Assembly (NCBI RefSeq): GCF_041886205.1
Contig: NZ_CP169031.1
DNA length: 64,000 nucleotides
From: Escherichia coli
Lineage (GTDB): Bacteria; Pseudomonadota; Gammaproteobacteria; Enterobacterales; Enterobacteriaceae
Reading direction: 5' to 3' (one strand)
In this document: in pieces, positions 1,287 to 44,235 of the stretch
How the letters are laid out: every line of letters starts with the position of its first letter
How positions within the stretch are numbered: the first letter of the stretch is position 1
Translations under genes and position numbers: made by a program
The notes under the pieces: model-generated
Seen by the model: the letters and a program-made list of their open reading frames with translations, nothing else
Told to the model about the DNA's origin: nothing
Databases searched by the model: none

Positions 1287-1305
1287 CCCGTTGTAAAGTG
1301 AGGAT

Positions 1306-3310: not shown

Positions 3311-3370
3311 ACAACCAGATGAGAAGTTACTTTGCATACCATTACCTCCTGACAACGTAGGAGGGAACTT

Positions 3371-3700: not shown

Positions 3701-4140
3701 TTGGCTGGGGTGTATGCGTTCTTGCGTTAGCCTTAGCCGATCGCTATTTGCTAAAACGCAAGGACATCACGCATTTAGAACTTGGTGATGTGGAAATTAA
3801 ACCGGGTTTCATCCGGGTGCCGTTCAAATACCGGTCTAAATTCCCGTTTTTGCGCGGCGCAACGGTCAGATATTGGATCCGCGATGTTCAGAAGCCAACG
3901 ACAGTGATTGAAGGCGAACAACGTTGTCTGACGTCGGCTGAACAGGGCGAAAACAGTGAATGGTTGTACATACCCACTGAATATATGGGTAAAGGAGAAC
4001 GGCTGTGGCATTTCAACGTCATGGTTACGCATGGCGACTCGTTCATTAACCCGTTGTATCGGATTTTCCCTGTTACTCAGCAAATCCGCAGAAGTTACGT
4101 AATAAATCTCGCACAGGATGTGTCAGATGACGAAAAATAA
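3697..4140 (+). CDS. lydB: Antiholin-like protein (P1 LydB-like)
   Basis: 147 aa, start overlaps lydA stop (translational coupling); position matches P1 lydB. Confidence 0.6.
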   Translation: MIGWGVCVLALALADRYLLKRKDITHLELGDVEIKPGFIRVPFKYRSKFPFLRGATVRYWIRDVQKPTTVIEGEQRCLTSAEQGENSEWLYIPTEYMGKGERLWHFNVMVTHGDSFINPLYRIFPVTQQIRRSYVINLAQDVSDDEK

Positions 4141-4729: not shown

Positions 4730-4730
4730 C

Positions 4731-6650: not shown

Positions 6651-7012
6651 CACTATCAGCTATTGAGTTAATGGATCTCAGCGATAAGTTGGATGCTTTG
6701 ATGTCCAAAGCGGCTACCGCGAGTGGCATGGAGTTGCTGGATATCAGCGATGAAATTGACCAGATCATGCAACAGATGGGGTACGGTGTGTCCGGCGGCA
6801 GTAGTGGCGAGGAAAAACAACCTTCGGTACATGATGGTGTGCCAAAACTGGTTGCTGATTTCCTGGCTGATAAATTCGTCGATCAGAGCACCGATGCATT
6901 TATCGGTACCTTGCAGGATTTGAGTCAATATGTTGGCACATACATCGACCTGGACCAGGTTAAACAGCACACGGCGGCATGGATAGCCGCCAACATTAAA
7001 GAGGCAGCATAA
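6647..7012 (+). CDS. ddrA: DdrA-like protein (downstream of darA)
   Basis: 121 aa acidic protein overlapping darA stop; syntenic with P1 ddrA. Confidence 0.55.
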   Translation: MTLSAIELMDLSDKLDALMSKAATASGMELLDISDEIDQIMQQMGYGVSGGSSGEEKQPSVHDGVPKLVADFLADKFVDQSTDAFIGTLQDLSQYVGTYIDLDQVKQHTAAWIAANIKEAA

Positions 7013-7024
7013 GGCGTAACAGGG

Positions 7025-16310: not shown

Positions 16311-19300
16311 ATGAACAAGCTATCTATGGGGGTGTTTCGCTGTTCAAGTGTCAGCGAAATATTAAAATACATTAGGGCAATAACATCTCACCGAGCGCCG
16401 ATTAAATACGGCGTGGAAAAGGTGGAAGGCAAAAGCTATGACCGACTGCGCCGGGAGGCGAATCAGAAGGCGATAGATTTGCTTAATTCGCTGGTGGACG
16501 GCGCGACACTGACAGATGAACAGCGCCAGATCCTGGCTGGGTACACCGGTGAAGGCGGCATTGGCGGGTCCGTCTCCGAATATTACACACCAAAGCCGAT
16601 CGCTGAAGGTGTCTGGGAGATCATGAAGCTCTACGGCGCGGACGTAGGTAACACTCTGGAACCATCGGCGGGAACCGGCGTTTTTAATGAGACAAAGCCG
16701 GTTGGTACGGTGATGACCGCGACTGAGATCAGCAGTGTTTCCGGTCGTATAAACCAGTTGTTACACCCGGAAGACAGCGTACAGATTTCCCCGTTCGAAC
16801 AGCTGGCTGTAAGCACGCCTAACGATTCATTCGACCATGTTGTGGGTAACGTTCCGTTCGGCGGTCGTGATAACACACGCAACATCGATAAGCCTTACGC
16901 AGAAGAAACGGACATGGGTTCTTACTTCATGCTCCGCATGCTGGACAAGATAAAGCCTGGCGGATTCATGTGTGTGATTGTGCCGCCGTCCATTGTTTCA
17001 GGTTCAAACATGAAGCGGTTACGCCTGCGCCTATCACGGAAAGCTGAATTTCTTGGCGCTCACCGCTTGCCTACCGGTACTTTTGACGCAAACGGGACCA
17101 GTACAGTCGTTGATGTGGTGCTGATGCGCAAACATCCGGCAGAGATGGCTGAGAAAATCCCCCTGGTGGATGAAGGCACTCTTGAATCGGCAAATGTGCT
17201 TTGGCCAACGTTTATTTCTGGCAAGTGGTTTGAAAAGGATGGCCGCCGGTTTGTTCATGGCACCCAGGAAAAGGGCTTCCAGGGGCGTATTGAGGTTCGT
17301 GCCGACGGTCAGATTGATAACCAGGCTCTTAAAGCGAAGCTGATTCATCGTTTCGAAAGCCGTATCGACTGGTCTTTGCTCGATATGGCTGAACCGTCAC
17401 CGACCGCAGACGTTGTTGGTGAAGGGGAAATGCGCCTGATTAATGGTGTATGGCAAAAATATGCTGGTGGTCGCTGGATTGAAGCTGATGCCGGGAAGGA
17501 ACTTAAGATCGATGCTGCCAGTTATGGCGCGGATAGCTGGGAGGCTCTTCAGCGTAACCTGACTACAACAGAAGGCCGTCTCGGCATGACATTTACCCAG
17601 ATGGCAAATGTCCGCGATAAGTACACCACATCAATCAGCGACGATATGGTGCAGCTGGTGGACTGGATTAACAGCCAGCCTGAAAAATACCGTGAACGCT
17701 TGTATCGCGGGGCGATGATTGGCCGGATGTTAATTGAATATCAGGACATGAAGGCCGCCGGGCATAGTGCTGAACAAATCGAACAGCAGCGCCTTTCTCT
17801 GGTATCCCGTTTGCAGGCAGAGATTGACCGTTTTGGTAACCCCGGTCGCGGTCCGATAGCGAAATTGTCGGGGAGCGGTGCGCGCGCCTGGTTTGCTTTC
17901 CGTGGTGCGATTAAGCTGGATGGCACTATTTCTGACGAGCTGACAGGAAAGCTGGTTACGCATGATTCCAGCGCCAGTTATGACTACACCAGCTATCAGG
18001 ACACCCTGCGTTATCTCTATAGCGATCTCACCCGCGATCCAATCCAGCTCGATGATTTCCGCCTTGCGTTTACCGGCGAACTGCCAGCCAGTGATGAAGA
18101 GTTGCTTAATTTATTGGCCAGCACCCCTGGTATTGCGGTTTCACCGTATGGCGGGATTGTTCCGTTCGCCCGCGCCACCAGCGGCGACATTAACGAGATA
18201 GTGGCTCCAAAACAGGAATTCCTCGCCACACTCCCCGACGGTCCAGTAAAGAACAACGTCCTTAATCAGCTGGCAGCTATCGAAGAGAAGCGCATCAAGA
18301 CGCCAGCAGAGAATATCCGGTTTAAGCTCAATAGCCGTTGGTTCGACCGTTCCGTCATTCTGGAATTTTTGCAGGAAAACGGCTATCCGGATCTGCGCTA
18401 TGTGCAGTCAGTGCAGCTGGAAGGCGACGAAATGGTTTCTGACACCTATCACGGTGGTGATGGTCTGTTCGTCGGGCACCGATACGGTGTCGTCCAGCGC
18501 AAGGATAAAGAAACAGGTGAGATTCGCTACGAGTGGGACCGTAAATCAGGTGAAAACGCGACCGGGTTCCCGGCACAGCTGGAAAAGTATCTCAATGGTG
18601 CGCGTATCGGTGGCAAAGATAGCGCGACGGCGAACGGCTACCGCGAGCAGATGGCACTGCTTGAGGACCAGTTCAATAAGTGGATCAAGACGCACGATCG
18701 CTACGATGAGCTGGTTGCCAAATACAACGATGTGTTCAATAGCAATATCCCGTATGAACACTCTGGCGATCCGCTTGGGTTGAAGGGATTAAGCGGTAAG
18801 CGCCAGCCATTTGATTACCAGAATAGCGAGGTGCGCCGACTGTCCGAAGATGGGCGCGGCATCCTGGGCTTCGGCACCGGGCTGGGTAAAACCACGACCG
18901 CGCTGGCGCTTGAGGCGTTCAACTATGAGAACGGTCGCTCCACCCGTACTGCGTATGTAGTGCCTAAATCAGTGCTGGAAAACTGGTATTACGAAGCAAA
19001 AGAATTCCTGAGTGAAGAGGCATTCAGTAACTACCTGTTCGTCGGTCTTGATGTGCTGATGGATGGCGATCAGATTCGCCAGGTGCAGGTGCTCGATGAG
19101 AACGGTAAACCTGTTCTTGGTACTGATGGCACTCCAGTTATGCGCGATGCTCTTAAGCTGGCAGATGAAGCCACTATCACGGCGCGGATGAACGCGATCC
19201 CGCACTCAAATTACCGTGCAGTCGTGTTTACCAAAGAACAATACGCCCGCATTCCGCTACGTGATGACACCGTAGATGAGCATGCACAGGATATGCTTTA

Positions 19301-22300
19301 TGACTTCGTTGCCGCCGGACGCGTAGCCAGCGCAATGGACTCCGACTCCCACCGCAAAGAGGCCGCGCGTCGCCGGGTATTGTCGGAGTATTCAGATACC
19401 GGCACCGAAAAAGCAGAGAAGTATCCGTACTTTGAGGATATGGGCTTCGATAGTGTGATCGCTGACGAAGGTCACAACTACCGCAATAGCTATAAAAATG
19501 GTCGCGAAGCGTCACAACTGGCCTATCTGCCCACCAGCGCGGTGGCGCAATCGGCGCGAGATATGGCAATTAAAAACGCGTACCTGATGAAAAAGAATGG
19601 TGGGCGCGGGCCGGTTCTCCTGACTGCAACGCCAGTCGTTAACACCCCGATCGATGCATACAACATGCTTTCTCATGTTCTGCCGAAGGAATACTGGCAG
19701 AACATGGGGATCTACGGTCCTGATGACTTCGTTAAATTCTTCGGCAAGACCAGGCTGGAAACGGTACAGAAAATTAGCGGTGAAGTTGAAGAAAAAATGG
19801 CGCTGGTGGGCTTTGAAAACCTTGATGCGCTGCGCGGTATATTCCATCGCTGGGTAACGCTTAAAACGGCGGAAGACGTTAAGGATACCGTGGAGATCCC
19901 GGAGCTGGACGAACACCAGCAGGATGCACCACTTACTGAAGAACAACTGGCGGCGTATGAAGAATTGCGTCAGCAGGCGGAAGCGGCGGCCAAAGCCAAC
20001 AATGGCGTAACGACCTCGGTCAATGAAGACGGCGTGATTGAGCACGAGAAAGCCCGTCCGATCTTCTCAATAATCAGGGATATGGACCGCGTATGTACTG
20101 ACATGGACCTGTACTATCGCCGGATCACCTATCGTTTCCTGCCGGAGTACGCCGATGCGGTGCAGCAGCTGGCGGACAGTTTGCCTAAACAAGCCACCAG
20201 CGAAGACGACGACAGTGATGATTCAATCACGCAGCAATCGCAATACTCCCTGATAGATAAGGGCGAGTTTATTCAGTTGCAGGTTCCGGAAGCGTTCGAG
20301 CAGGAAGTGAATAAGCGCCTGGCCAGGTTTGGCATTGACGAACAGACCGTAACTCACCCCGTTACGCCCAAATACGCGAAGCTGATTGCCACGCTGAAGG
20401 AGTTTTTCCCGGAAGGTAAGCAAATCATCTTCACCGATGAAAAAACGCAGCACCAGAAGCTCAAGCGCATTATCTGCAATGCTCTTAACCTTGAACCTTC
20501 AAAGGTGGGGATACTGAATGCTCAGACGGTTGCCGAGGCAGGTAAAACCGGTAAGAAACTGAAAGCGGTTAAACCGCCGAAAGAGTTACCGGATGAACCA
20601 ACAGATGCACAGATAGCGAAATACAACGAGCAAATGGCTCTGTATGACGCCTATATCGCGCAGCAAAATGAAATGTCGTTGGGCGGTCTGGAAAAGATTG
20701 CAGCCGACTTCCAGGAGGGCCGGACTCCGATCATCATCTGCAACAAAAAGGCAGAGGTGGGTATCAACCTGCATCGAGGAACGACTGACATCCATCATCT
20801 GACGTTGCCATGGACTCCAGCCAGTATTGCGCAACGAAACGGTCGCGGTGCCCGAGTTGGCTCCAACCGTGCAAGCGTTCGCGTTCACTACTACTGCGGC
20901 AAGGGTTCTTTCGATGAATACCGACTGAAGACGCTGAAGCGTAAAGCAGGCTGGATCTCCGATATCCTCCGTTCAGATAAGTCAGAAATGGAGAACGCCG
21001 ACGCCAACGATATGATCGAAATGCAGATGTATGCCGCTAAGGATGATGGCGAACGTCTGGCAATGATGCAGGTTCAAATGGATAAGGCGAAAGCCGCGCA
21101 ACGCGCTCGCCAGAAAGAACAGGCTACTATCGACCTTCAGAACTACATCAAGGCGCAGCACGCAGCTGGTGAGGATGTGGAGGTGCTTACCGCTGAATTA
21201 GAGCGAAGCAAAGCGGAACTTGAAAAGACCACCGCCGAGGTAGCTAAATTCAAACAGGCGGCAATGGCCAAGGCAGCGGATAACGCAGACTGGAAGGCAC
21301 GCTGGGGGAGTGTCCATCACACAGACCGTATGTTGTTAGCACAGTATCGCGCGTCGTTGAAAAGCGCCATTCAGCGCAAGGCTAATATCTCTCAAGCCAT
21401 CTCCCGCTATGAGAAATTATTGAACCGTACTCAGAAGGCCGCGACGGATATCAAACGCCTGCGCCCGCTGGTGGAGGATGCATTAAATAAAGGCATTCTG
21501 GATGTTGATCCTGACCTGGTTAACCATGCGAGTGAGTTCCTTGTTATCGGCGATCGCTCATGGCGTGTAGGCCAATACTACGATTGTGCCGGTGATATCG
21601 TTCGCATTAAGTCGCTGGACTTCGACAGCCAGCGCGCAGACGTGGAGATCATCTTCACCTTCAAAGGCACCAAATCTGGTAACTGGGATGTGAAGACGCT
21701 GGATAAACAGGTTGATGTAACTCCCGATGAAGATGCTGTTATGCAGAAAATCAGTGGTGGCGTCTCCATCGCCGGGATTAACGACATCGTTTCCTGTGAC
21801 GATTTCTACCGTTTCCAGCAGCGCGGCATGATCAAAATCACTGACTCATACGGCGTTCAGACTACAGAGTCAGGCTATAGCATTGATTTTGTTGGTACCT
21901 ATACGGACCCACTGAAGCATGCGGTTTACCCGGATCGCCGTGACGGCGCGCTGAAGTCGTCAATTGCAAAATGGGTGCTTGGTATGATGTCGGAAGGGAA
22001 TAACCGCCAGATCCGTTCGGCAGAAGCATTCCTGGTTGAACTGTTTGGCTCCAATTATGGCGATGTAATCGCGTCATACGGAGATACGCTATCCCCTGAA
22101 GCAATTCAGGAGAAAATAGCGGATGCGATCGCCAGAATGCCGGAGAAAACAAGCCAGGGGGCTACTCGTAACGGGGATTCTGAACTTGAAGTCACCAATG
22201 CCATTTTCGGTACCAATGAGTTCCGGGCGTCAGATTATGAGATCACCACAGCACAGTTTGGCACCATTGGCATTTACAGCAATAAAGACGAGATCAAGCA

Positions 22301-23078
22301 GGCAATGGACGCAGCAAGCGCGCGCATTGCAGCAGAACGGAAAGTCAATCTGAATCATGCAGTCGCCGCGCTGACTCAATCGTGGGTAACAGCAATCAGG
22401 GAGGCCGCCACCACAGGGAAAATCACACCGGCAATTGCGGATGTCGTAAACGACGGCTCTAAATTTATGGATGCCTATCAAATGGATGCGGTGCAGTTGC
22501 CATCAGCCTATGGGCAACTCAGCTATCGCATGACCTACAACCTGGTATCAATGTTTACCGACCTTGCCATCCTTGGGCTGGTGGACCTTAACGAGGTTAC
22601 GCCGGAATTGCTCAGCATGCGCAAGAATCATGTGGAGATATTGCACAGAATTAACACGGTACTTGCCGGGCGCACCGATGAAGAGAAACAGGCAGACGCT
22701 GATCGGATAAACCTGGCCCTTGGCAACATCACGGAGGAAGAAATTGCCGCCAGAAACGAGAAACAAGAAGAGTTATCATCAATACAGGGTGATGCCACCA
22801 GCATAGCTCAGTCTCTTGGTCTGAATTATCGCGTATCCACCGCCGACCTGAAGATGATGTACGCACCAAAATTCGCCGCTGGCGAGGTATTTGGGCTTCA
22901 GGAAGCCTCCGGCATGAAAGGGGTTCTTTTCCGTGCGAAAGACGCAATCAAGGCGAAATTCGGCGCTCGCTGGTTGCCAGCGAAGGCGAAGAACAGCGAC
23001 TTCCCAGGTAACTGGTGGATTATCGAGACAAAACACAACGTGGCGGACGTTCTGGCCGTCATCCAACAATACGCATAA
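16311..23078 (+). CDS. darB: DarB antirestriction protein (N6-adenine methyltransferase + SF2 helicase domains)
   Basis: 2255 aa; N-terminus has MTase motif I (LEPSAGTGVF) and motif IV (VVGNVPFGG); central DEAH-like helicase motif (VIADEGHNYRN). Length equals P1 DarB as recalled. Confidence 0.9.
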   Translation: MNKLSMGVFRCSSVSEILKYIRAITSHRAPIKYGVEKVEGKSYDRLRREANQKAIDLLNSLVDGATLTDEQRQILAGYTGEGGIGGSVSEYYTPKPIAEGVWEIMKLYGADVGNTLEPSAGTGVFNETKPVGTVMTATEISSVSGRINQLLHPEDSVQISPFEQLAVSTPNDSFDHVVGNVPFGGRDNTRNIDKPYAEETDMGSYFMLRMLDKIKPGGFMCVIVPPSIVSGSNMKRLRLRLSRKAEFLGAHRLPTGTFDANGTSTVVDVVLMRKHPAEMAEKIPLVDEGTLESANVLWPTFISGKWFEKDGRRFVHGTQEKGFQGRIEVRADGQIDNQALKAKLIHRFESRIDWSLLDMAEPSPTADVVGEGEMRLINGVWQKYAGGRWIEADAGKELKIDAASYGADSWEALQRNLTTTEGRLGMTFTQMANVRDKYTTSISDDMVQLVDWINSQPEKYRERLYRGAMIGRMLIEYQDMKAAGHSAEQIEQQRLSLVSRLQAEIDRFGNPGRGPIAKLSGSGARAWFAFRGAIKLDGTISDELTGKLVTHDSSASYDYTSYQDTLRYLYSDLTRDPIQLDDFRLAFTGELPASDEELLNLLASTPGIAVSPYGGIVPFARATSGDINEIVAPKQEFLATLPDGPVKNNVLNQLAAIEEKRIKTPAENIRFKLNSRWFDRSVILEFLQENGYPDLRYVQSVQLEGDEMVSDTYHGGDGLFVGHRYGVVQRKDKETGEIRYEWDRKSGENATGFPAQLEKYLNGARIGGKDSATANGYREQMALLEDQFNKWIKTHDRYDELVAKYNDVFNSNIPYEHSGDPLGLKGLSGKRQPFDYQNSEVRRLSEDGRGILGFGTGLGKTTTALALEAFNYENGRSTRTAYVVPKSVLENWYYEAKEFLSEEAFSNYLFVGLDVLMDGDQIRQVQVLDENGKPVLGTDGTPVMRDALKLADEATITARMNAIPHSNYRAVVFTKEQYARIPLRDDTVDEHAQDMLYDFVAAGRVASAMDSDSHRKEAARRRVLSEYSDTGTEKAEKYPYFEDMGFDSVIADEGHNYRNSYKNGREASQLAYLPTSAVAQSARDMAIKNAYLMKKNGGRGPVLLTATPVVNTPIDAYNMLSHVLPKEYWQNMGIYGPDDFVKFFGKTRLETVQKISGEVEEKMALVGFENLDALRGIFHRWVTLKTAEDVKDTVEIPELDEHQQDAPLTEEQLAAYEELRQQAEAAAKANNGVTTSVNEDGVIEHEKARPIFSIIRDMDRVCTDMDLYYRRITYRFLPEYADAVQQLADSLPKQATSEDDDSDDSITQQSQYSLIDKGEFIQLQVPEAFEQEVNKRLARFGIDEQTVTHPVTPKYAKLIATLKEFFPEGKQIIFTDEKTQHQKLKRIICNALNLEPSKVGILNAQTVAEAGKTGKKLKAVKPPKELPDEPTDAQIAKYNEQMALYDAYIAQQNEMSLGGLEKIAADFQEGRTPIIICNKKAEVGINLHRGTTDIHHLTLPWTPASIAQRNGRGARVGSNRASVRVHYYCGKGSFDEYRLKTLKRKAGWISDILRSDKSEMENADANDMIEMQMYAAKDDGERLAMMQVQMDKAKAAQRARQKEQATIDLQNYIKAQHAAGEDVEVLTAELERSKAELEKTTAEVAKFKQAAMAKAADNADWKARWGSVHHTDRMLLAQYRASLKSAIQRKANISQAISRYEKLLNRTQKAATDIKRLRPLVEDALNKGILDVDPDLVNHASEFLVIGDRSWRVGQYYDCAGDIVRIKSLDFDSQRADVEIIFTFKGTKSGNWDVKTLDKQVDVTPDEDAVMQKISGGVSIAGINDIVSCDDFYRFQQRGMIKITDSYGVQTTESGYSIDFVGTYTDPLKHAVYPDRRDGALKSSIAKWVLGMMSEGNNRQIRSAEAFLVELFGSNYGDVIASYGDTLSPEAIQEKIADAIARMPEKTSQGATRNGDSELEVTNAIFGTNEFRASDYEITTAQFGTIGIYSNKDEIKQAMDAASARIAAERKVNLNHAVAALTQSWVTAIREAATTGKITPAIADVVNDGSKFMDAYQMDAVQLPSAYGQLSYRMTYNLVSMFTDLAILGLVDLNEVTPELLSMRKNHVEILHRINTVLAGRTDEEKQADADRINLALGNITEEEIAARNEKQEELSSIQGDATSIAQSLGLNYRVSTADLKMMYAPKFAAGEVFGLQEASGMKGVLFRAKDAIKAKFGARWLPAKAKNSDFPGNWWIIETKHNVADVLAVIQQYA

Positions 23079-25516: not shown

Positions 25517-26077
25517 TTAGTGCATAATGTTTGCCATTTCATAGGCGTCAGCCAGCAACTCCATCTCTGACTTGTTCAACAAGGTGAATTCTTTCTTGCC
25601 TCCTACCACGCCATCGGCATGAACAGGGACCAGCCAGGGGTATTTTTCTCTTACTTCAGCCGGTGCTGCATGCTGGTGGTGCCATCTGCAAAGGGGCAAT
25701 TGCTTTTTGTGACAACCCGGCGCGGTACGACCGGAGATATGGTGCAGAGACACCTCTTCAGATATTACTCCATGCATGTAGCAGGCAATGCAGGGGAGAG
25801 TGCCAAGAGCATTGGCGATAGTCTGTTCCTCCTCCGTCGGTGTTCGCCCCTTCAAGCCACGAGATTTTATTTTTACCGCACTTTTCCGCGTTTTGCTGGC
25901 TGGTGGGCGCTCTTTCTGTTTAGCGATACGGCGGTCGATAGAATCCCGCATTTTCTGATATTGCGATTCTCGCCAGGCGGGGTCAGCCAACTTTTCCCGT
26001 TGCCGAGCGATCGCTCGTTCTCTGGCTGCCTTCTGCCACTCGCGGCGCTGTTCAAGTTTTTGTTCGATTGTTTTCAT
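25517..26077 (-). CDS. ref: Ref, HNH-family recombination enhancement endonuclease
   Basis: 186 aa from ATG 26077 (track ORF extends upstream); basic N-terminus (MKTIEQKLEQRREWQKAARERAIARQREK) and HNH/zinc motif CIACYMHG...HHISGRTAPGCHKKQLPLCRWHH, as I recall for P1 Ref. Confidence 0.85.
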   Translation of the reverse strand: MKTIEQKLEQRREWQKAARERAIARQREKLADPAWRESQYQKMRDSIDRRIAKQKERPPASKTRKSAVKIKSRGLKGRTPTEEEQTIANALGTLPCIACYMHGVISEEVSLHHISGRTAPGCHKKQLPLCRWHHQHAAPAEVREKYPWLVPVHADGVVGGKKEFTLLNKSEMELLADAYEMANIMH

Positions 26078-26082
26078 ATGGC

Positions 26083-26108
26083 AAAAAAAAGGCGGCCTAA
26101 TGGCCGCC
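26083..26108 (-). terminator. Hairpin + U-tract immediately upstream of ref start
   Basis: Minus strand GGCGGCC-ATTA-GGCCGCC followed by TTTTTTTT, 5 nt before ref ATG. Confidence 0.55.
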
Positions 26109-26175
26109 AATGATGTCAAGGAGTGAAGTAATGGCAACGTCTTCGTAGTTGACAAAAACTGCGGCCAAATTATAA

Positions 26176-26192
26176 CAATCAATTAGAGCAAT
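26176..26192 (-). promoter_or_regulatory. C1 operator-like site upstream of ref
   Basis: CAATCAATTAGAGCAAT, 14/17 match to operator consensus (reverse orientation). Confidence 0.5.
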
Positions 26193-26686: not shown

Positions 26687-27718
26687 CTAATTGCCATCTT
26701 CCAGCAGGCGCACCATTGCCCCTGTTTCACTATCCAGGTTACGGATATAGTTCATGACAATATTTACATTGGTCCAGCCACCAGCTTGCATGATCTCCGG
26801 TATTGAAACTCCAGCGCGGGCCATATCTCGCGCTGCTCCGACACGGGCACTGTGTCCAGACCAGGCCAGGTATCTCTGACCAGAGTCATCCTTAGCGCCG
26901 TAAATCAATCGATGAGTTGCTTCAAAAATCCCTTCCAGGGCGCGAGTTGATAGCTGGCTGGTGGCAGATGGCGCGGCAACACCATTTTTTCTGACCCGGC
27001 AAAACAGGTAGTTATTCGGATCATCAGCTACACCAGAGACAGAAATCCATCGCTCGACCAGTTTAGTTACCCCCAGGCTAAGTGCCTTCTCTACACCTGC
27101 GGTGCTAACCAGCGTTTTCGTTCTGCCAATATGGATTAACATTCTCCCACCGTCAGTACGTGAGATATCTTTAACCCTGATCCTGGCAATTTCTGCTATA
27201 CGTAGCAGGGTATTATAAGCAATCCCAAGAAATGCCAGATTACGTATATCCTGGCAGCGATCGCTATTTTCCATGAGTGAACGAACCTGGTCGAAATCAG
27301 TGCGTTCGAACGCCAATGCCTGTTTTGCACGTTCACCGGCATCAACGTTTTCTTTTCGAATCCGCCGCATGACCAGTGAAACAGCATTGCTGTCACTTGG
27401 TCGTGGCAGCCCGGACCGACGATGAAGCATGTTTAGCTGGCCCAAATGTTGCTGGATAGTTTTTACTGCCAGACCGCGCGCCTGAAGATATAGAAGATAA
27501 TCGCGAACATCTTCAGGTTCTGCGGGAAACCATTTCCGGTTATTCAACTTGCACCATGCCGCCCACGACCGGCAAACGGACAGAAGCATTTTCCAGGTAT
27601 GCTCAGAAAACGCCTGGCGATCCCTGAACATGTCCATCAGGTTCTTGCGAACCTCATCACTCGTTGCATCGACCGGTAATGCAGGCAAATTTTGGTGTAC
27701 GGTCAGTAAATTGGACAT
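26687..27718 (-). CDS. cre: Cre tyrosine recombinase
   Basis: 343 aa MSNLLTVHQNLPALPVDATSDEVRKNLMDMFRDRQAFSEHTWKMLLSVCRSWAAWCKLNNRKWFPAEPEDVRDYLLYLQARGLAVKTIQQHLGQLNMLHRRSGLPRPSDSNAVSLVMRRIRKENVDAGERAKQALAFERTDFDQVRSLMENSDRCQDIRNLAFLGIAYNTLLRIAEIARIRVKDISRTDGGRMLIHIGRTKTLVSTAGVEKALSLGVTKLVERWISVSGVADDPNNYLFCRVRKNGVAAPSATSQLSTRALEGIFEATHRLIYGAKDDSGQRYLAWSGHSARVGAARDMARAGVSIPEIMQAGGWTNVNIVMNYIRNLDSETGAMVRLLEDGN: essentially the Cre sequence as I know it (last residue N here vs D in my recollection). Confidence 0.97.
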   Translation of the reverse strand: MSNLLTVHQNLPALPVDATSDEVRKNLMDMFRDRQAFSEHTWKMLLSVCRSWAAWCKLNNRKWFPAEPEDVRDYLLYLQARGLAVKTIQQHLGQLNMLHRRSGLPRPSDSNAVSLVMRRIRKENVDAGERAKQALAFERTDFDQVRSLMENSDRCQDIRNLAFLGIAYNTLLRIAEIARIRVKDISRTDGGRMLIHIGRTKTLVSTAGVEKALSLGVTKLVERWISVSGVADDPNNYLFCRVRKNGVAAPSATSQLSTRALEGIFEATHRLIYGAKDDSGQRYLAWSGHSARVGAARDMARAGVSIPEIMQAGGWTNVNIVMNYIRNLDSETGAMVRLLEDGN

Positions 27719-34297: not shown

Positions 34298-34678
34298 CTA
34301 CTCCGCGGAACCATACAATCTACGTAACGTGTCGGCGACAGAAGATACAGATATCTCTCCGGTCGCAGCCCCTACGGTAAGGTCTGCCAGTTCAGGTGAA
34401 TCAAATACCTGCACCCCGTTACGGCGTAGAAATAACAGCGCACTGTTTAGCGCGGTACGCTTATTGGCATCATTGAATATATGCCCTCTCGCTGTAGCCA
34501 CCAGGTAGGTGGCGGAGACTTCGAAAAGGTCGGTGATCTCTTCGTAGGCAACTCTGGCCTGAACTCTCCCGATAATGGCCTCTGCCCTACCCGGATCTGA
34601 CATTCCCGGCAGGCCGCCGTAGCGGTTTATATTCGCATCATGAAGCGCAATAAGTTCTTCCGGTGATATATGCCTCAT
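34298..34678 (-). CDS. doc: Doc toxin (Fic-family kinase)
   Basis: 126 aa [39 protein letters not shown]...[13 protein letters not shown] (Fic-like motif); start overlaps phd stop. Confidence 0.9.
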
Positions 34679-34899
34679 TATCGGTTAACCAGTTCCTTGT
34701 TGGTGGAGTCCAGGGTGTCAAACAGGGATGCAAATTCAGCATCCAGCGCCGCTTTTTTGTAGGCTTCGAAAGTAGCCTTGCTGACAATTACTGCTGGCTC
34801 ACGGCCTCTGCGGGTGATTTCAACCTCTTCCCCGGCTTCAACATTGTTGAGCACTTCAGAAAGGTTGCCGCGCGCGGTACGGAAGTTAATGGATTGCAT
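34678..34899 (-). CDS. phd: Phd antitoxin
   Basis: 73 aa from ATG 34899: [56 protein letters not shown]... Confidence 0.9.
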
Positions 34900-34971
34900 A
34901 AACACCTCGTGTACTCATTATGTGTACACAATTATAAACTTCACAGGCATAAAGCACCAGCACTTTGCAGC

Positions 34972-35361
34972 TTAAATAACCGGACAATCATCAAATTCCC
35001 CACTTCGGGCATCATTGATGACATGAGTGATCACACCAAAAACAGCATTACTGCCCGTGTATCCATCGTCATCTACTGGTAACGCCTCTTTCTTCCCGGT
35101 GCTTAAATCCTCCAGGTGCTGGCGCGGATACTTCCTGTATCTCTTTATGCGATATTCACCCTCCATAGCGCACACAAGCAGAGAACCATCAACCGGAGTA
35201 AGCGAGGAATCAACCACCAGCAAAGCACCCTGCAATATTCCCTCACGGTGATGGCTATCAGCTGCCCGCATGAAGTAGGTTGCTGATGGATGCCTGATTA
35301 GTTGCTGATCAAGAGAAATTCGGCTTTCAACATAATCCGCCGCAGGAGAAGGAAAGCCCAT
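34972..35361 (-). CDS. humD: UmuD homologue (HumD-like)
   Basis: 129 aa; UmuD/LexA peptidase S24 C-terminal fold; LexA box 20 bp upstream. Confidence 0.8.
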   Translation of the reverse strand: MGFPSPAADYVESRISLDQQLIRHPSATYFMRAADSHHREGILQGALLVVDSSLTPVDGSLLVCAMEGEYRIKRYRKYPRQHLEDLSTGKKEALPVDDDGYTGSNAVFGVITHVINDARSGEFDDCPVI

Positions 35362-35380
35362 AGCGTTTTCACCTCAATAA

Positions 35381-35400
35381 TACTGTTAATTTATACAGTA
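35381..35400 (+). promoter_or_regulatory. LexA (SOS) box between humD and divergent ORF
   Basis: TACTGTTAATTTATACAGTA: perfect CTGT-N8-ACAG with palindromic flanks. Confidence 0.75.
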
Positions 35401-36715
35401 TACATTAAAGAGACACCTTTGGTGCAAACGCGTTACGTACATCAACCACCGCTGATGATTTTGTGCTCTTTGCTACTATTCATCACCGCGGGATCAGCGT
35501 AACCTCGTTGCCAATCAGTTAATAAGGAATTAGCTATGCCTAATCGCATTCCTCTCATCTCTTAACGATATCAACGATGCGTTATATGAATACTGTGAAA
35601 AAACGAGCATCACAGATGCACCTGATGCATTTGTCGAGCTACCGGTATATCTCCGCGACATCTATGCAATACGAACACCGCCCGTATCGGTGATTCACAT
35701 TGGCTATGTCCGCCTGTCCATCGAAGAAGATGAAGATCGTTATATCGTGCGCCACTATACATTGGACAGAAAAGAACTTCCTAATGAATGGAACATGAGT
35801 AATTTCTACAACGGTGAATATGGCTTAAAATCCGCTAATAATTTACGGTCATAATCTATACAGGCATGTATAACAACAACGAGCCTATTAGCTGTCAACA
35901 ACGTTATTTTCTCAAATAAGAAAAGGCACAAAACAAATTGTTTAAGGCCACAAATTGTGGCCTTAATGGAGGAGGGAGGCTTATTGGCTATGGCTAAAAA
36001 TCAAATTAGACACTTCATGTTGCTGTAGCTCATCTAGATCCGAGGCCACAAAACCTTTTCCGAAAAAATTCACAAGTAACTCACTAGCCGCATCATTATC
36101 ACCTATTACACGAAAGCCATACGGCAACGTCGCAAGTTGACGATGTAATCCTGCTGAGAAAGTCGAATCTAACAGCGCCCAGAATTCCCACAGCAGGATA
36201 ATACTCGCCTCTTAATACTGTATATATGTTGTTACGATATGTTTTTCTGTCTCTAAAAAAAGATGTTAATAGAATGCTAACCATTGAAGTGGATAAAAAT
36301 ATACAATTCCAACAAACGTTATCTTTAACAATTTTTTTCTTTGCGTTGACTTTCCCGGACACCTTGTCTGACCGAAGGTGCGCGAAAGCCACTTTTTCCT
36401 TCCTGAGTTATCCACAAAGTTATGCACTTGCAAGAGGGCCATTTTCTACATATTGTGGTGGCTAACAGATGAAATGAATGTAGATTAATTGAAGATAAGG
36501 AGAAAATTTGAGATGCAATCATGACGTTAATAGATATGGTCTGCATTACAGACCCCACCCGCATCAAGGAATTAGCCGTTCCCTGATGTTTTTCCGAAAA
36601 CATGTGCCGTAAGCTCACGTTAACGACTTTCATTCACCGAATCCAACTATATAGGGGTTGGGTTTCTACGTCAACGTGAGAGCACACAGCTTTACATTTG
36701 ACGAGGATTACCCTG

Positions 36716-36853
36716 ATGATTGTATTTTTTCAGTTTCTAAGTGCATTTTTAAATGCGCCTGTTCTTAGCCAAGTGCTGGCGATTGTCTTCATCGTGGTTC
36801 TGATATGGTTTTTCAAGTCAGTGATAAACAGAGGCGTGCGCTGGCTTATTTAA
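36716..36853 (+). CDS. Candidate small hydrophobic peptide (45 aa)
   Basis: MIVFFQFLSAFLNAPVLSQVLAIVFIVVLIWFFKSVINRGVRWLI; GAGGA 10 nt upstream; preceded by a 12-bp inverted repeat. Not in ORF track (<60 aa). Confidence 0.3.
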   Translation: MIVFFQFLSAFLNAPVLSQVLAIVFIVVLIWFFKSVINRGVRWLI

Positions 36854-37385
36854 TGTCGCGCTGAGATATTAATTCCCTTGCTGTTTAACCATTTTTTGTG
36901 TGTGCTGGTGAGCGTGTGAAGGCTCAATTTGTTGCCCACCAGTATTTACTATTTCTAAGCTCCACATTGTCACTTCCGCACAAACAACTTAGCGCGGAAT
37001 CAGTATTCGGCCCAAGATGTAAAAAGCCAACCTGCGTTATGGTTCGCATTTCCAAATAGTGTTCTGAACGCCCGTGCCGGGCGCGAGATGTGGATTAGCG
37101 TTCGCGCTATGCTGATATACGACTTTGGACTTTCCATATTGCTGACAGGCTTTGTCTGCGGTTTTTTGCAGGCTGTCCAGCCCATACCAGCCATCTGACT
37201 GGATGCTAACATTTTCGCCGTCATTGTATTGCACCATCGCACACCCAGACATAGCTAAAATCGCACCGACAATACCGCTTTTCCAAAAAGCTCTAATTAG
37301 GTCATTCGTTACCTAATGTCCGAACTGCTAAAGCATCTAAGTTGCTGTAGAATCACATCCAATTACATAAGCCTGAAATAAGTGG

Positions 37386-38948
37386 ATGAAAATGACAAGT
37401 ATTCAACAACGTGCAGAGCTTCATCGTCAAATCTGGCAAATTGCTAACGATGTCAGGGGTTCGGTCGATGGATGGGATTTTAAGCAATACGTTCTGGGCG
37501 CACTTTTCTACCGTTTTATCAGCGAAAATTTTTCCAGCCATATGGAAGCCGGTGATGACAGTATCTGTTATGCGAAACTGGATGACAGCGTAATTACTGA
37601 TGACATTAAAGACGATGCCATCAAAACTAAAGGCTACTTCATCTACCCCAGTCAGCTTTTCTGCAACGTAGCTGCGAAAGCAAATACCAATGACAGACTG
37701 AATGCAGATTTAAACAGCATCTTCGTTGCTATCGAAAGTTCTGCTTACGGTTATCCTTCAGAAGCTGACATCAAAGGTTTGTTTGCTGATTTCGATACCA
37801 CCAGTAACCGCTTGGGTAACACCGTTAAAGATAAAAATGCCCGCCTGGCTGCGGTTCTGAAAGGGGTTGAAGGGTTAAATCTGGGCAACTTTAACGAACA
37901 TCAGATTGACTTATTTGGCGATGCCTATGAGTTCCTGATTTCTAACTATGCGGCGAATGCCGGTAAGTCAGGCGGCGAGTTCTTTACACCGCAACACGTC
38001 TCTAAGCTGATTGCACAACTGGCTATGCACGGGCAGACCCACGTTAACAAAATCTACGACCCGGCAGCAGGTTCCGGTTCGCTGTTGTTGCAGGCTAAAA
38101 AGCAGTTTGATAACCATATCATCGAAGAAGGCTTTTTCGGTCAGGAAATCAACCATACGACCTATAACCTGGCGCGTATGAACATGTTTTTGCACAACAT
38201 CAACTACGACAAGTTTGATATCAGGCTGGGTAATACACTGACTGAGCCGCACTTCAGAGATGAAAAACCGTTTGATGCCATCGTTTCTAACCCGCCGTAT
38301 TCGGTGAAATGGATTGGCAGCGATGACCCGACGCTGATTAACGATGAACGTTTTGCCCCGGCTGGCGTTCTGGCCCCAAAATCCAAAGCTGACTTTGCGT
38401 TTGTATTACATGCGCTGAACTATCTTTCGGCCAAAGGTCGTGCTGCGATTGTCTGCTTCCCGGGTATTTTTTACCGTGGCGGCGCAGAGCAGAAAATCCG
38501 TCAGTATCTGGTTGACAATAACTATGTCGAAACCGTGATTTCACTGGCACCGAACCTGTTCTTTGGCACCACCATTGCAGTAAACATTCTGGTGCTGTCT
38601 AAACATAAAACGGATACCAAAGTTCAGTTTATTGACGCCAGCGAACTGTTCAAAAAAGAGACTAACAACAACATCCTTACCGATGCGCATATCAAACAGA
38701 TTATGCAGGTCTTTGACACCAAAGCAGATACTGACCATCTGGCGAAATCTGTGCCGTTTGAGACCGTGGCCGCCAATGGTTATAACTTGTCAGTTAGCAG
38801 CTATGTGGAAGCCAAAGATACCCGCGAAGTTGTAGATATCACTGAACTGAATGCCGAACTGAAAACCACCGTCAGCAAAATCGACCAGTTACGCCAAGAC
38901 ATTGATGTGATCGTGGCTAGAATTGAAGGCAGAGAGGTACAGGCATGA
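37386..38948 (+). CDS. hsdM: Type I restriction-modification methyltransferase subunit HsdM
   Basis: 520 aa; motif I ([12 protein letters not shown]) and N6-adenine catalytic motif NPPYS; N-terminal HsdM domain. Confidence 0.95.
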
Positions 38949-40153
38949 GCGAGCTGAGCTATCTGGAAAAACTGTTGGATGGGGTTGAGGTTGAGTGGGT
39001 AACATTGGGTTCTATGGCAGATATCGGTACTGGAAGCTCAAATCGTCAGGATGAAAGCGAAAATGGAATTTATCCATTCTATGTTCGCTCAAAGAATATC
39101 TTGAAGTCAGATACCTTTGAATTTGATGAGGTAGCAATAGTCATTCCTGGTGAAGGTGGAATTGGCGACATATTTCACTATGTTGAGGGGAAATATGCTC
39201 TACATCAAAGGGCGTATAGAATTCGTATCACAACTAATGCCGTAGACACGAAGTTTTTGTATTACTTCATGTCATCTAGCTTTAAGCAGTACATCTTGAC
39301 AAAAAGTGTGGGTGCTACCGCCATTTCGATAAGAAAACCCATGCTGGAAGGATTTAAAGTTCCCATTCCTAGCCCGGACAACCCGGAAAAGTCCCTTGCC
39401 ATCCAGTCTGAAATTGTTCGGATTCTGGATAAATTTACTGCAATTACCGCTGAGCTTACCGCTGAGCTTACTATGCGTAAAAAACAGTACAACTACTATC
39501 GCGACCAGTTGTTGAGTTTTAAAGAGGGTGAGGTTGAGTGGAAGACTTTGGGGGAAATTGGGAATTTTACATATGGATATGCAGCCAAAGCCATGGACTC
39601 AGGAGATGCCCGTTTCGTGAGAATTACTGACATAAATAAAGACGGGAAGCTATCGAAAGAAAACCCAATGTACGTTGAATTAAATGAGGAAAATGAGAAA
39701 TATACCTTAGAAAAAAATGATTTACTCATGGCAAGGACTGGTGCAACCTTTGGTAAAACAATGATTTTTGAAGAAGATTATCCAGCAGTATACGCTGGTT
39801 TTTTAATAAAGTTGAACCTAAATGAAACGATTATTAATGCCAAATATTACTGGCACTTTGCACAAAGTGATTTTTTTTGGGAACAGGCTAATAAATTAGT
39901 ATCTGGTGGTGGGCAACCACAGTTTAATGCTAATGCACTGAAACAAGTCAGAGTACCTATTCCATACCCATCTCACCCTCAAAAATCTTTAGACGAACAG
40001 GGGCGTATTGTGGATATTCTAGATAAGTTTGATGCAATCGCAGCTTCCATCACTGAAGGTCTTCCGCGTGAAATCGAGTTACGCCAAAAACAATACGAAT
40101 ACTACCGTGATTTACTGTTCAGTTTCCCAAAACCTGAAACTGTCAGTAATTAA
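38945..40153 (+). CDS. hsdS: Type I R-M specificity subunit HsdS
   Basis: 402 aa; two target-recognition domains separated by conserved central region containing TAELTAELT and conserved distal region ([16 protein letters not shown]); start overlaps hsdM stop. Confidence 0.9.
39446..39469 (+). repeat. Tandem 12-bp repeat (ACCGCTGAGCTT x2) encoding TAEL-TAEL in HsdS central conserved region
   Basis: Two perfect copies in tandem. Confidence 0.9.
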
Positions 40154-40274
40154 TTGACCATTGCTACCGACCGGGCCACCTTAACACCCGGTCTGTATAT
40201 AGACTATTTTTTACGCGCCGGAAGTCACTCTTAACGCCCTTCCGGCCCTTGCCAGGCGGCACAAAGGATGCGCT

Positions 40275-43200
40275 ATGACTCATCAGACACACACTATTGC
40301 TGAATCCAATAACTTTATCGTCCTTGATAAGTACATCAAAGCTGAGCCAACAGGCGACAGCTACCAGAGCGAATCGGACCTGGAACGTGAACTGATTCAG
40401 GACCTGCGGAATCAGGGCTATGAATTTATATCCGTAAAATCTCAGTCGGCTATGCTGTCCAATGTTCGGGAACAGCTTCAGAGCCTCAATGGTGTGGTGT
40501 TTAATGACAGCGAGTGGCGGCGTTTCACGGAGCAGTATCTGGACAACCCGAGCGATGGCATTCTGGATAAGACCCGTAAAATCCATATCGACTATATTTG
40601 CGACTTTATTTTTGATGACGAGCGACTTGAGAACATCTATTTGATAGATAAAAAGAATCTCATGCGCAATAAGGTGCAGATTATCCAGCAGTTTGAACAG
40701 ACGGGTTCTCATGCTAACCGTTATGACGTCACGCTCCTGGTTAATGGCTTACCACTGGTACAAATCGAACTGAAAAAGCGCGGCGTGGCGATTCGTGAGG
40801 CTTTCAACCAGATACATCGTTACAGTAAAGAGAGTTTTAACAGCGAAAATTCCCTGTTTAAGTATCTGCAACTGTTTATCATTTCTAACGGCACAGATAC
40901 CCGTTACTTTGCCAACACCACAAAGCGCGATAAAAACAGTTTTGATTTCACCATGAACTGGGCGAAATCAGACAACACGCTGATTAAAGACCTCAAAGAC
41001 TTTACCGCTACCTTTTTCCAGAAACATACTCTGCTGAATGTTCTGGTGAACTACAGCGTGTTTGACAGTAGTCAGACACTACTGGTGATGCGACCGTACC
41101 AGATTGCCGCCACCGAGCGCATTCTGTGGAAAATTAAGAGCTCCTTTACAGCGAAGAACTGGTCAAAACCGGAAAGCGGTGGGTATATCTGGCACACTAC
41201 CGGTTCTGGTAAAACCCTCACCAGCTTTAAAGCCGCGCGTCTGGCAACAGAGCTGGACTTTATTGATAAAGTCTTCTTCGTGGTCGACAGGAAAGACCTC
41301 GATTACCAGACCATGAAGGAATATCAGCGTTTTTCGCCAGATAGTGTTAACGGTTCGGAAAATACCGCAGGCCTGAAACGAAATCTGGATAAGGACGATA
41401 ACAAAATTATTGTCACCACTATTCAGAAACTCAATAACCTGATGAAAGCAGAAAGCGACTTGCCTGTATACAATCAGCAAGTGGTGTTTATATTTGATGA
41501 ATGCCACCGCAGCCAGTTTGGAGAAGCGCAGAAAAACCTGAAGAAGAAATTTAAACGCTATTATCAATTTGGTTTTACCGGCACCCCTATTTTCCTGGAA
41601 AACGCCTTAGGCTCAGAAACAACAGCCAGCGTATTTGGTCGTGAATTGCATTCGTATGTAATTACCGATGCGATTCGTGACGAAAAAGTGCTCAAGTTCA
41701 AGGTGGACTACAACGATGTGCGGCCACAGTTTAAGTCTTTAGAGACAGAAACTGACGAGAAAAAACTGAGTGCGGCTGAAAATCAGCAGGCGTTTCTTCA
41801 TCCCATGCGTATACAGGAAATTACGCAATATATTCTGAATAATTTCCGCCAGAAAACCCACCGCACCTTCCCTGGCTCAAAAGGTTTTAATGCTATGTTG
41901 GCAGTGAGCAGCGTGGATGCTGCAAAAGCCTATTACGCGACGTTTAAACGGTTACAAGAGGAAGCAGCTAATAAATCGGCTACCTATAAACCGCTGCGTG
42001 TTGCGACAATCTTCTCCTTTGCTGCCAATGAAGAACAAAATGCCATTGGTGAAATTTCCGATGAAACTTTTGATACCAGCGCAATGGACAGCAGTGCTAA
42101 AGAGTTTCTTGATGCTGCAATTCGTGAGTATAACAGCTATTTTAAAACTAACTTCAGCACCGACAGTAACGGTTTTCAGAACTACTATCGTGATTTAGCC
42201 CAACGGGTTAAAAATCAGGATATCGATCTGTTAATTGTCGTGGGGATGTTTTTAACCGGCTTCGACGCTCCAACATTGAACACGCTATTCGTCGATAAAA
42301 ACTTGCGTTTTCACGGCCTGATGCAGGCATTTTCCCGCACCAACCGCATTTATGACGCTACTAAAACCTTCGGTAATATCGTCACTTTCCGCGATCTGGA
42401 ACGCTCAACCATCGATGCCATAACGCTGTTTGGTGACAAAAACACCAAAAATGTAGTGTTAGAAAAGAGTTATGCAGAGTATATGGAAGGCTTTACTGAT
42501 GCCGCTACTGGTGAAGCTAAGCGCGGCTTTATGGCGGTAGTTGCAGAACTGGAACAACGGTTCCCTGACCCAGCCAGTATTGAAAGTGAAAAAGAGAAGA
42601 AAGACTTCGTTAAACTGTTTGGTGAATACCTGCGTACCGAGAACATCCTGCAAAACTATGATGAATTTGCCACGCTGAAAGCCCTGCAACAAATCGATCT
42701 TAGCGATCCTGTTGCAGTAGAAAAATTCAAAGCAGAACATTATGTGGATGATGAAAAGCTCGCTGAATTGCAAACAATTCGTCTCCCTGCTGATCGCAAG
42801 ATTCAGGATTATCGTTCTGCCTATAACGATATTCGCGACTGGCAGCGCCGTGAGAAAGAAGCTGAGAAAAAAGAGAAATCAACCACTGACTGGGATGACG
42901 TAGTTTTTGAGGTCGATTTGTTGAAGTCTCAGGAAATAAACCTGGATTATATCCTTGGACTGATTTTCGAACACAACAGACAAAATAAAGGCAAGGGCGA
43001 AATGATCGAAGAGGTCAAACGCTTAATTCGTTCAAGCCTGGGGAACCGTGCTAAAGAGGGCCTGGTGGTCGACTTTATTCAGCAAACGAACCTGGATGAC
43101 TTACCGGACAAAGCCAGCATCATTGACGCATTCTTTACGTTTGCTCAACGCGAACAGCAACGTGAAGCAGAAGCATTGATAAAAGAAGAAAATCTCAATG

Positions 43201-43391
43201 AAGAGGCGGCGAAACGCTATATTCGCACGTCTTTAAAACGCGAATACGCCACCGAAAATGGCACAGAATTAAACGAAACATTACCAAAACTTAGTCCGTT
43301 GAATCCGCAATATAAAACGAAAAAACAGGCAGTTTTCCAGAAAATCGTCTCGTTTATTGAGAAGTTTAAAGGCGTAGGCGGAAAAATATAG
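40275..43391 (+). CDS. hsdR: Type I R-M restriction endonuclease/translocase subunit HsdR
   Basis: 1038 aa; PD-(D/E)xK nuclease N-terminal region, SF2 helicase motifs (GSGKT Walker A; DECHRS motif II). Confidence 0.95.
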
Positions 43392-43408
43392 CCCAATTCG
43401 TGTTTTTC

Positions 43409-43436
43409 TTGCGGGTTCTTAATTAAACCCGCAAGA
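43409..43436. other. 10-bp inverted repeat hairpin downstream of hsdR
   Basis: CTTGCGGGTT-cttaatta-AACCCGCAAG; no clear U-tract on either strand. Confidence 0.5.
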
Positions 43437-43470
43437 GCTCGTGGGGTTCCAAATGGCTAATATACTCCCC

Positions 43471-43557
43471 TTACCCATGCGCGACGATGCCGCCAAAAGT
43501 GATAGAGAACAGCCAGAAATAGATCGCGGCCATAATGATTTTGAATGCCGTGTTCAT
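43471..43557 (-). CDS. Candidate 28-aa hydrophobic peptide
   Basis: MNTAFKIIMAAIYFWLFSITFGGIVAHG with RBS CAGGAG 8 nt upstream of ATG; operator-like site ~85 bp upstream. Not in ORF track. Confidence 0.3.
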   Translation of the reverse strand: MNTAFKIIMAAIYFWLFSITFGGIVAHG

Positions 43558-43639
43558 ATTTTCAGCTCCTGTGATTGATTGGATACATGCCGCGCCTTGC
43601 GGCATGTTTTTATTTTCACTTTCTCTGTTTTAAAAATCA

Positions 43640-43656
43640 AGATTTATTAGAGTAAT
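43640..43656 (-). promoter_or_regulatory. C1 operator-like site
   Basis: AGATTTATTAGAGTAAT, 15/17 match. Confidence 0.55.
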
Positions 43657-44162
43657 TATTGCTGATGGAGAAGCGCGTTTTCATACTCCCTGACCATTAA
43701 CGTAAGTACGCCGTGACTCCTGAAAACACGCGCCACTTCAATCTTATCTTCCAGCGCGAACGCGATTTTACTTAGACCAATTTTCTTAAGGAGATCAATC
43801 TTTGCTGGGCCGTCATTTCTATCATCGGTAGCAGGACGCATAGATAGCAAAGGCTCAGCCCCGTTTGTTACGTGCTTACGCAACCAGGCTCGTGTTTTAT
43901 CCCTGGCTATCTCACAGCGCCCGGTTACAAACCAGAGGGTGTAAATGCCGGACAACTGGCGCACCATATCAATAACTGGAGTGATGGGAGTATCGGTGTC
44001 ACAGGCGAGATTAAACTCGTTCCAGTCCTTTGTTAATGCACCTTTACCTGGTGGCGGAAGCAAATGCAGTCTGTCTTCAGTTGCCTCTGATATTGTTCCA
44101 TCAATATCGACTATGACGATATACGGACGTTCCTGGTGTGCGTGTTTATTGAAAATACTCAA
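43656..44162 (-). CDS. HAD-superfamily hydrolase/phosphatase-like protein
   Basis: 168 aa with HAD motif I IVIVDIDGTIS near N-terminus. Confidence 0.6.
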   Translation of the reverse strand: MSIFNKHAHQERPYIVIVDIDGTISEATEDRLHLLPPPGKGALTKDWNEFNLACDTDTPITPVIDMVRQLSGIYTLWFVTGRCEIARDKTRAWLRKHVTNGAEPLLSMRPATDDRNDGPAKIDLLKKIGLSKIAFALEDKIEVARVFRSHGVLTLMVREYENALLHQQ

Positions 44163-44235
44163 ATGCCCTCCTCATTGGACGAAAAAAATGCTGGTGGGAC
44201 GCACTCCACCAGCATTAAAAGTGACACTGTAACTA

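Follow-up and report, generated by a model that had tools for sequence, protein, structure and literature searches.

The 64,000-nucleotide (nt) stretch of Escherichia coli contig NZ_CP169031.1 analyzed here (assembly GCF_041886205.1; hereafter 'the window') carries a complete type I restriction-modification (R-M) system, encoded by hsdM, hsdS and hsdR, within the backbone of a P1-like phage-plasmid. The account that is very likely correct is that the three genes form an intact type IC cassette of the EcoR124 family, carried as cargo at a variable locus of the phage-plasmid. The cassette would combine the machinery of EcoR124I with different target-recognition domains (TRDs), the spacing of its recognition site would be set by a repeated TAEL motif in HsdS, and the number of repeats would change rarely.

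All three genes are intact, full length and located on the plus strand in the order M-S-R. The hsdM open reading frame (ORF) at 37386..38948 encodes an adenine methyltransferase subunit of 520 amino acids (aa) in the ORF list used here; some pipelines prefer a second ATG, which gives 518 aa. The specificity gene hsdS (38945..40153, 402 aa) is coupled to hsdM by a 4-nt ATGA overlap, and hsdR (40275..43391, 1038 aa), encoding the translocase/endonuclease subunit, is separated from hsdS by a 121-nt spacer. This arrangement, with M and S coupled and R set apart, is the type IC gene layout. A preliminary description of the locus, made from the sequence alone, gave the same coordinates, lengths and order for the genes and was also right that the subunit lengths are close to those of EcoR124I, whose PDB chains have 520, 404 and 1038 aa. 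Its end point for the cassette, 43436, is not the end of hsdR, which stops at 43391; positions 43435/43436 mark the end of a 10-bp hairpin.

The machinery subunits are close to those of the prototype. In PDB alignments, HsdM differs from the EcoR124 HsdM chain 7bst_D at 23 of 519 positions (95.6% identity) and HsdR from the EcoR124I HsdR chain 2w00_A at 17 of 1038 positions over the full length (98.4% identity), a closeness of sequence that places both within type IC. The methyltransferase motifs DPAAGSG and NPPY are intact, as are GSGKT, DECH and the nuclease D...ELK residues of HsdR. PADLOC and NCBIfam assign all three subunits to type I, with TIGR00497 matching HsdM at 636 bits, TIGR00348 matching HsdR at 766 bits and PADLOC labeling HsdM as MTase_I. 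The EcoR124_C domain (PF12008) is found on the HsdR of a 95-kb public E. coli contig whose DNA is identical to the window across hsdR. Families of type I systems are defined by sequence, antibody cross-reaction and complementation. At such identity, complementation between the window subunits and those of EcoR124I is expected.

The specificity subunit has the same plan with different contents. Aligned to the 404-aa EcoR124I HsdS (7bst_A), the window HsdS shows the type IC domain order: a conserved N-terminus (aa 1-22), TRD1 (aa ~23-138, nt ~39011-39358), a central conserved region (aa ~139-205, nt ~39359-39559) whose helix bears the TAEL repeat, TRD2 (aa ~206-343, nt ~39560-39973) and a conserved C-terminus (aa ~344-402) that matches over its last ~55 residues. 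Matches are confined to the three conserved regions, which are nearly identical to those of EcoR124I and EcoR124II, and both TRDs differ. When TRD1 and TRD2 were each searched alone against the PDB, only fold-level or chance matches were returned and no relative was found. Because both TRDs are unrelated to those of EcoR124I, the half-sites should not be GAA and RTCG. The preliminary identification of a complete EcoR124I-like system therefore stands for the machinery, that is HsdM, HsdR and the conserved regions of HsdS, and does not extend to specificity.

The TAEL repeat lies where the family predicts. Tandem Repeats Finder reports a perfect period-12 array of 2.3 copies on the plus strand at 39444..39471, the core of which is two copies of ACCGCTGAGCTT at 39446-39469. 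The core is in frame and encodes TAELTAEL (T168-L175) in the first coiled-coil helix between the TRDs, exactly at the position of the EcoR124I TAEL repeat in the alignment, and thus agrees in position and reading with what had been described. It is the sole perfect tandem duplication of a 9-15-nt unit across the window; 0.004 such duplications are expected per window analytically, and any at all occurred in 2 of 200 Markov-1 simulated windows. The 12-bp unit is also identical to the EcoR124 DNA unit in published primers (PMC10644984). Since the repeat is unique in the window, stands at the EcoR124I position and uses the same DNA unit, it can be regarded as real rather than a chance occurrence. 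The window allele and EcoR124I both have two copies of this unit (2x); they differ at the flanking residues, with T instead of N after the repeat and I instead of L before it. A deletion in the past was considered as the source of the T-for-N difference but was rejected, as no 12-nt deletion from a three-copy (3x) array yields ACT and the T variant is present in several unrelated alleles.

The function of this repeat has been established in relatives of the window system. With two TAEL copies, EcoR124I recognizes GAA N6 RTCG and its methylated adenines are 7 apart, and with three copies EcoR124II recognizes GAA N7 RTCG with adenines 8 apart (PMC3874165), which matches the spacer-length rule given in the preliminary description. 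EcoDXXI and EcoprrI have three copies, and engineered hybrids obey the spacing rule (PMC3874165). Removing one TAEL from EcoR124II changes the set of phages that are restricted (PMC10644984). Both EcoDXXI and EcoprrI (TCA N7 RTTC and CCA N7 RTGC, respectively) are type IC systems like that of the window, which differs from them in its repeat number.

By homology with these enzymes, a complex of two HsdM and one HsdS (HsdM2-HsdS1) would methylate a bipartite, asymmetric site with m6A on both strands, and addition of two HsdR (HsdR2-HsdM2-HsdS1) would allow the complex to translocate and then cut DNA whose sites are unmethylated. Such cutting would protect the lysogen from phages and plasmids that enter the cell. 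How far apart the half-sites lie would be determined by the two TAEL turns of the first inter-TRD helix. Under the family rule the 2x allele should have the shorter spacing, its methylated adenines 7 nt apart like those of EcoR124I, and a 3x allele should add 1 bp. Copy number could change, rarely, by unequal crossing-over, by slippage on the 12-bp repeat or by allelic recombination in the central region. Textbooks have covered this family, its mechanism and the TAEL spacer rule since the late 1980s.

The TRD content and repeat number of relatives were compared in several collections. The exact window HsdS protein is present in NCBI and occurs on 40 contigs in a collection of 5.8 billion protein clusters. 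Ten of the 120 closest HsdS proteins share both TRDs with the window, 92 share only TRD2 and 15 only TRD1, and the TRD2-only proteins pair this domain with partners in at least 17 length classes. From these sequences, re-assortment of TRDs in the family is plain and extensive; TRD2 is common, TRD1 is rare and the combination of the two is rare. Among 5426 complete E. coli genomes, TRD1 is found in 35 (17 chromosomal and 18 plasmid), none of which could be linked to a published methylome, and literature searches on E. coli type IC methylomes yielded nothing attributable to either TRD of the window.

Repeat number is uniform among the closest relatives and divided in the wider family. All nine full-length clusters with the window TRD pair in the 5.8-billion-cluster collection (74 contigs) are 402 aa long and 2x, and all 120 best HsdS matches are also 2x. 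The central region of EcoR124-family HsdS has matches in 1126 of the 5426 complete E. coli genomes. A sample of 60 evenly spaced matches from this set contains 33 with two copies, 26 with three (12 nt longer) and 1 that is uninformative, and neither 1x nor 4x was found in it. Both 2x and 3x are thus common and stable in the family. This near-even split of the E. coli family, with other copy numbers absent from the sample, is modestly useful in itself.

In the plasmid and complete-genome collections, the only record with both window TRDs is plasmid pYLPD4a of E. coli PD4 (NZ_CP074008.1, HsdS WP_257233043.1). It has the same TRD1 and TRD2, an HsdS with 99% aa identity and the same cassette architecture. 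Its HsdS has three TAEL copies and 406 aa, whereas that of the window has two and 402 aa. DNA identity between the two is 99.5% in TRD1 and 98.4% in TRD2, and outside the TRDs it is 94.0% in hsdM, 93.9% at the 3' end of hsdS and 96.2% in hsdR. Because hsdM, hsdR and the hsdS 3' end are 4-6% diverged, the 3x allele is not a one-step derivative of the 2x allele. The carriers also differ: pYLPD4a is an IncFIB plasmid, unlike the P1-like window element, and the DUF3927 gene and tellurite/colicin resistance genes adjoining its cassette resemble genes listed for pSLy3-type phage-plasmids. A separate peculiarity of pYLPD4a is that positions 23-3314 hold metG (methionyl-tRNA synthetase) and apbC beside genes for an S24 peptidase and DNA polymerase III theta, a housekeeping-type cargo that is unusual on a plasmid.

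The window and pYLPD4a form a natural 2x/3x pair with the same TRDs, analogous to EcoR124I/II. The pair could serve directly to test the TAEL spacing rule a second time, beyond EcoR124I/II, which is the main practical value of the locus. Otherwise the finding has little significance beyond bookkeeping, as it adds an uncharacterised TRD combination to a well-known type IC family.

The preliminary description went further and called the repeat a built-in specificity switch. In its strongest form that reading would make TAEL a programmed, high-frequency phase-variation device, and a clonal population would always hold both 2x and 3x (or 1x) forms. The perfect 28-nt tandem array is correctly placed for such a role, a natural 3x allele with the same TRDs does exist, and the change from EcoR124 to EcoR124/3 was first seen in the laboratory (PMC3874165). 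Known phase-variable hsd genes, however, have simple-sequence tracts far longer than 2.3 copies of a 12-nt unit (PMC7383803), and phase-variable type I systems otherwise rely on multiple hsdS genes with a recombinase; neither a long simple-sequence tract nor such an arrangement is present here, as no extra hsdS copy and no invertase or recombinase was found near the cassette. The uniform 2x state of the 74 contigs and the lack of 1x and 4x forms in the 60-record sample also argue against a switch, as does the sole 3x counterpart, whose backbone is diverged and belongs to another type of phage-plasmid. A programmed switch is therefore very improbable, and the earlier wording, although right in that a 3x counterpart exists, was overstated. 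Taken together, the consistent 2x state of contigs with this TRD pair and the diverged surroundings of the 3x allele favor infrequent change by recombination over frequent slippage; the evidence supports TAEL as the family's known spacer determinant, changing rarely over evolutionary time. How the difference from pYLPD4a arose is a separate matter. One possibility is that hsdS alleles whose repeat numbers were already different underwent homologous recombination in the conserved central region and so re-assorted TRD1, the repeat block and TRD2, with no slippage or unequal crossing-over within this allele. Such an exchange would fit the mosaic identity to pYLPD4a, with TRDs far closer than the surrounding genes, the extensive TRD re-assortment in the family, the abundance of both 2x and 3x donors and the repetition within hsdS of the conserved segments that flank each TRD. 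Two sequences cannot separate it from unequal crossing-over in situ, though, and for EcoR124/EcoR124-3 the mechanism on record is unequal crossing-over within the repeat (PMC3874165). Central-region recombination explains the pair as well as slippage within the allele does, and is held here tentatively, as a substantial possibility that falls somewhat short of being the favored one.

A different kind of doubt concerns whether the cassette is carried in a silent or methylation-only state, with hsdR, for example, poorly expressed and little restriction taking place. Strong consensus promoters were not found, and restriction by type IC enzymes is subject to alleviation through assembly control (PMC12707154). 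In addition, a C1-controlled promoter of the phage-plasmid backbone faces hsdR in the antisense direction. This promoter region, PpmgT/Op88 (~43612-43656, minus strand), comprises predicted C1-controlled promoters and a C1 operator of P1 and has been retained at the right junction of the cassette, downstream of pap; its Op88 has one C-to-T change relative to P1 (GAGTAAT vs GAGCAAT). In the P1 annotation PpmgT drives pmgT-U-V, and in the window it is directed across a small membrane-peptide ORF into hsdR at its 3' end. An active PpmgT would, once C1 is lost on prophage induction, give rise to antisense transcription over hsdR and tie restriction to the state of lysogeny or lysis. Type I restriction activity would then be coupled to the life cycle of the carrier phage-plasmid, a proposal that is given only a slim chance. 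A silent cassette is likewise very unlikely: all three full-length ORFs retain their catalytic motifs, the intact cassette has been kept at 99.5-100% identity in four contexts representing 25 contigs, and the family is very widespread, with central-region matches in about a fifth of the complete E. coli genomes. In enteropathogenic E. coli E2348/69, a nearly identical EcoR124-like system on the chromosome has been proven to act as a barrier to transformation (PMC2518929). The window system is probably active.

Several points weigh against the account of an active type IC cassette with TAEL-set spacing and rare repeat change. The activity and recognition sequence of the window allele are inferred, and experimental tests of the spacing rule cover the TRDs of EcoR124I/II and EcoDXXI only. 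The single 3x relative, at 4-6% divergence, gives no direct view of a one-step conversion between 2x and 3x. Finally, a consensus scan upstream of hsdM returned no strong consensus promoter; the leader contains a -10-like hexamer, TAGAAT, at 37348-37353. Across the scan, 9 sites were found and 11.9 were expected from shuffled sequences. As the scan performed no better than the shuffles, the promoter-like element TTAACA-18-TATTTT at 40181-40210 in the hsdS-hsdR spacer (40154..40274, plus strand), which rests on this consensus scan, is graded only as a candidate separate promoter for hsdR. The spacer is conserved in relatives, some copies of which differ by a 7-bp ATTGACC indel. The indel is located at 40154-40160, between ATTG repeats directly after the hsdS stop codon and outside the candidate promoter, and it separates contigs whose encoded HsdS is identical.

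The carrier is identified by synteny and identity. The window aligns with Salmonella phage SJ46 and the P1 backbone at 93-98% DNA identity and retains cre, c1, pacA/B, lpa, phd/doc, humD, pap, pmgS and the Dar genes in the order of a P1-like phage-plasmid (Punavirus). The carrier thus differs from that of EcoR124, an IncF conjugative plasmid. The 95-kb public contig mentioned above is 100% identical to the window over 19.2 kb. In every contig encoding this HsdS that was read (25), the neighbors are the same, with pacA, lpa, doc/phd and humD on one side and pap, pmgS and ppp on the other, and the cassette is 99.5-100% identical in the four contexts compared, which represent these contigs.

The limits of the insertion were taken from blastn comparisons of the window with P1, SJ46 and pYLPD4a, using the GenBank annotation of P1 (NC_005856). 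Homology to the P1/SJ46 backbone ends at 36910-36913 and resumes at 43467, which delimits a variable segment of 36911..43466. The segment is occupied by pmgV-pmgU-pmgT in P1, by ~12 hypothetical genes in SJ46 and by the hsd cassette in the window. Homology to pYLPD4a runs from 37037 to exactly the stop codon of hsdR. The earlier statement that the cassette is not at the P1 res/mod position is thus correct; the cassette stands in place of pmgT-U-V, with the upfM-side region on one side and pap on the other. According to the P1 annotation, the DNA flanking this locus is 96-98% identical to sequence before and after the hsd locus of EcoDXXI, and also to sequence downstream of hsdR in R124/3; the window shares the latter likeness. 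Type IC cassettes had therefore already been connected with this P1 locus. No meaningful direct or inverted repeats that could represent transposon-like ends were found bracketing the cassette, so its mobility appears to be recombinational and not transpositional.

Other type IC cassettes at the same backbone position are found in the P1-like Escherichia phages phi456 and vB_EcoM-673R5, in plasmid pMCR_SCKP-LL83 and in many others, and the cassette family has 1481 plasmid records. Plasmid pMCR_SCKP-LL83 shares TRD2 with the window (97% DNA identity). The other P1-like type IC cassettes have a TRD1 different from that of the window, and hence a different first half-site. Their left junction also differs, as the homology of most begins ~90 bp upstream of hsdM. 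The exact element of the window has already been deposited in public assemblies, and this P1 locus commonly carries type IC cassettes.

The type III res/mod genes of P1 are absent from the window element, in which cre (26687-27718), ref (25517-26182) and a pair of small ORFs without a known function are followed almost immediately by darB (16311-23078). This leaves the type IC cassette as the only R-M system identified in the window. A P1-like lineage has in effect swapped type III for type IC at a different, variable locus, and the Dar anti-restriction genes hdf, darA and darB (4118-10012 and 16311-23078) have been kept.

The flanks of the cassette were described earlier as low-coding DNA with small hydrophobic ORFs. 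These features are real, but they belong to the P1 backbone and are not part of the cassette. On the left, comparison with SJ46 reveals a deletion junction at 35556/35557, with loss of an lxr-like gene and the 5' end of the next ORF, and the P1 hot (DNA polymerase III theta) gene is missing from the window. The low-coding stretch left of the cassette is largely explained by this deletion and the absence of hot. The annotation of SJ46 includes a small ORF that corresponds to the 51-aa hydrophobic ORF at 36698-36853. An Rfam scan of 34500-44500 (E <= 0.1) detected no RNA family and therefore gave no evidence for a known small RNA or type I toxin-antitoxin RNA in the flanks.

The DNA directly upstream of hsdM is associated with the cassette. 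The segment 37037..37385, shared with pYLPD4a, contains a conserved 71-aa ORF and the hsdM leader. This ORF (37037-37252, minus strand) is divergent from hsdM and has an unknown function; it matches phrog_7757 (PHROG E 1e-50), and a Pfam scan returned no match for it. It travels with the cassette in that it is also present, unannotated, in pYLPD4a, and it is not found in most other cassette-bearing P1-like plasmids.

Downstream of the hsdR stop codon are two hairpins on the plus strand. The first (43408..43435), the one at which the earlier end point was placed, has a perfect 10-bp stem and no T-run, with a folding energy of -24.8 kcal/mol in a 59-nt context (z -4.8). It lies just past the end of pYLPD4a homology and is not shared with P1 or SJ46. 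The second (43585..43617), in P1-backbone DNA, is followed by a T-run and is probably the intrinsic terminator of hsdR; the DNA holding it is homologous to that downstream of the EcoDXXI and R124/3 hsd loci in the P1 annotation. On the opposite strand, the small hydrophobic ORF crossed by PpmgT (43471-43557) encodes 28 aa with an AGGAG Shine-Dalgarno sequence, or 44 aa from an ATG at 43605. It is 100% conserved in P1, where it is unannotated, and in SJ46, where it is labeled 'membrane protein'.

Nearer the start of the window, an ORF of 995 aa with unknown function is located at 7025-10012 in the Dar region. With the Dar genes and the cassette together, the element has both a type I restriction system and a defence, borne in the virion, against restriction of that type. 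Transposase ORFs at 262-939 (225 aa) and 1306-2877 (523 aa) suggest an insertion sequence or cargo insertion near hdf and darA.

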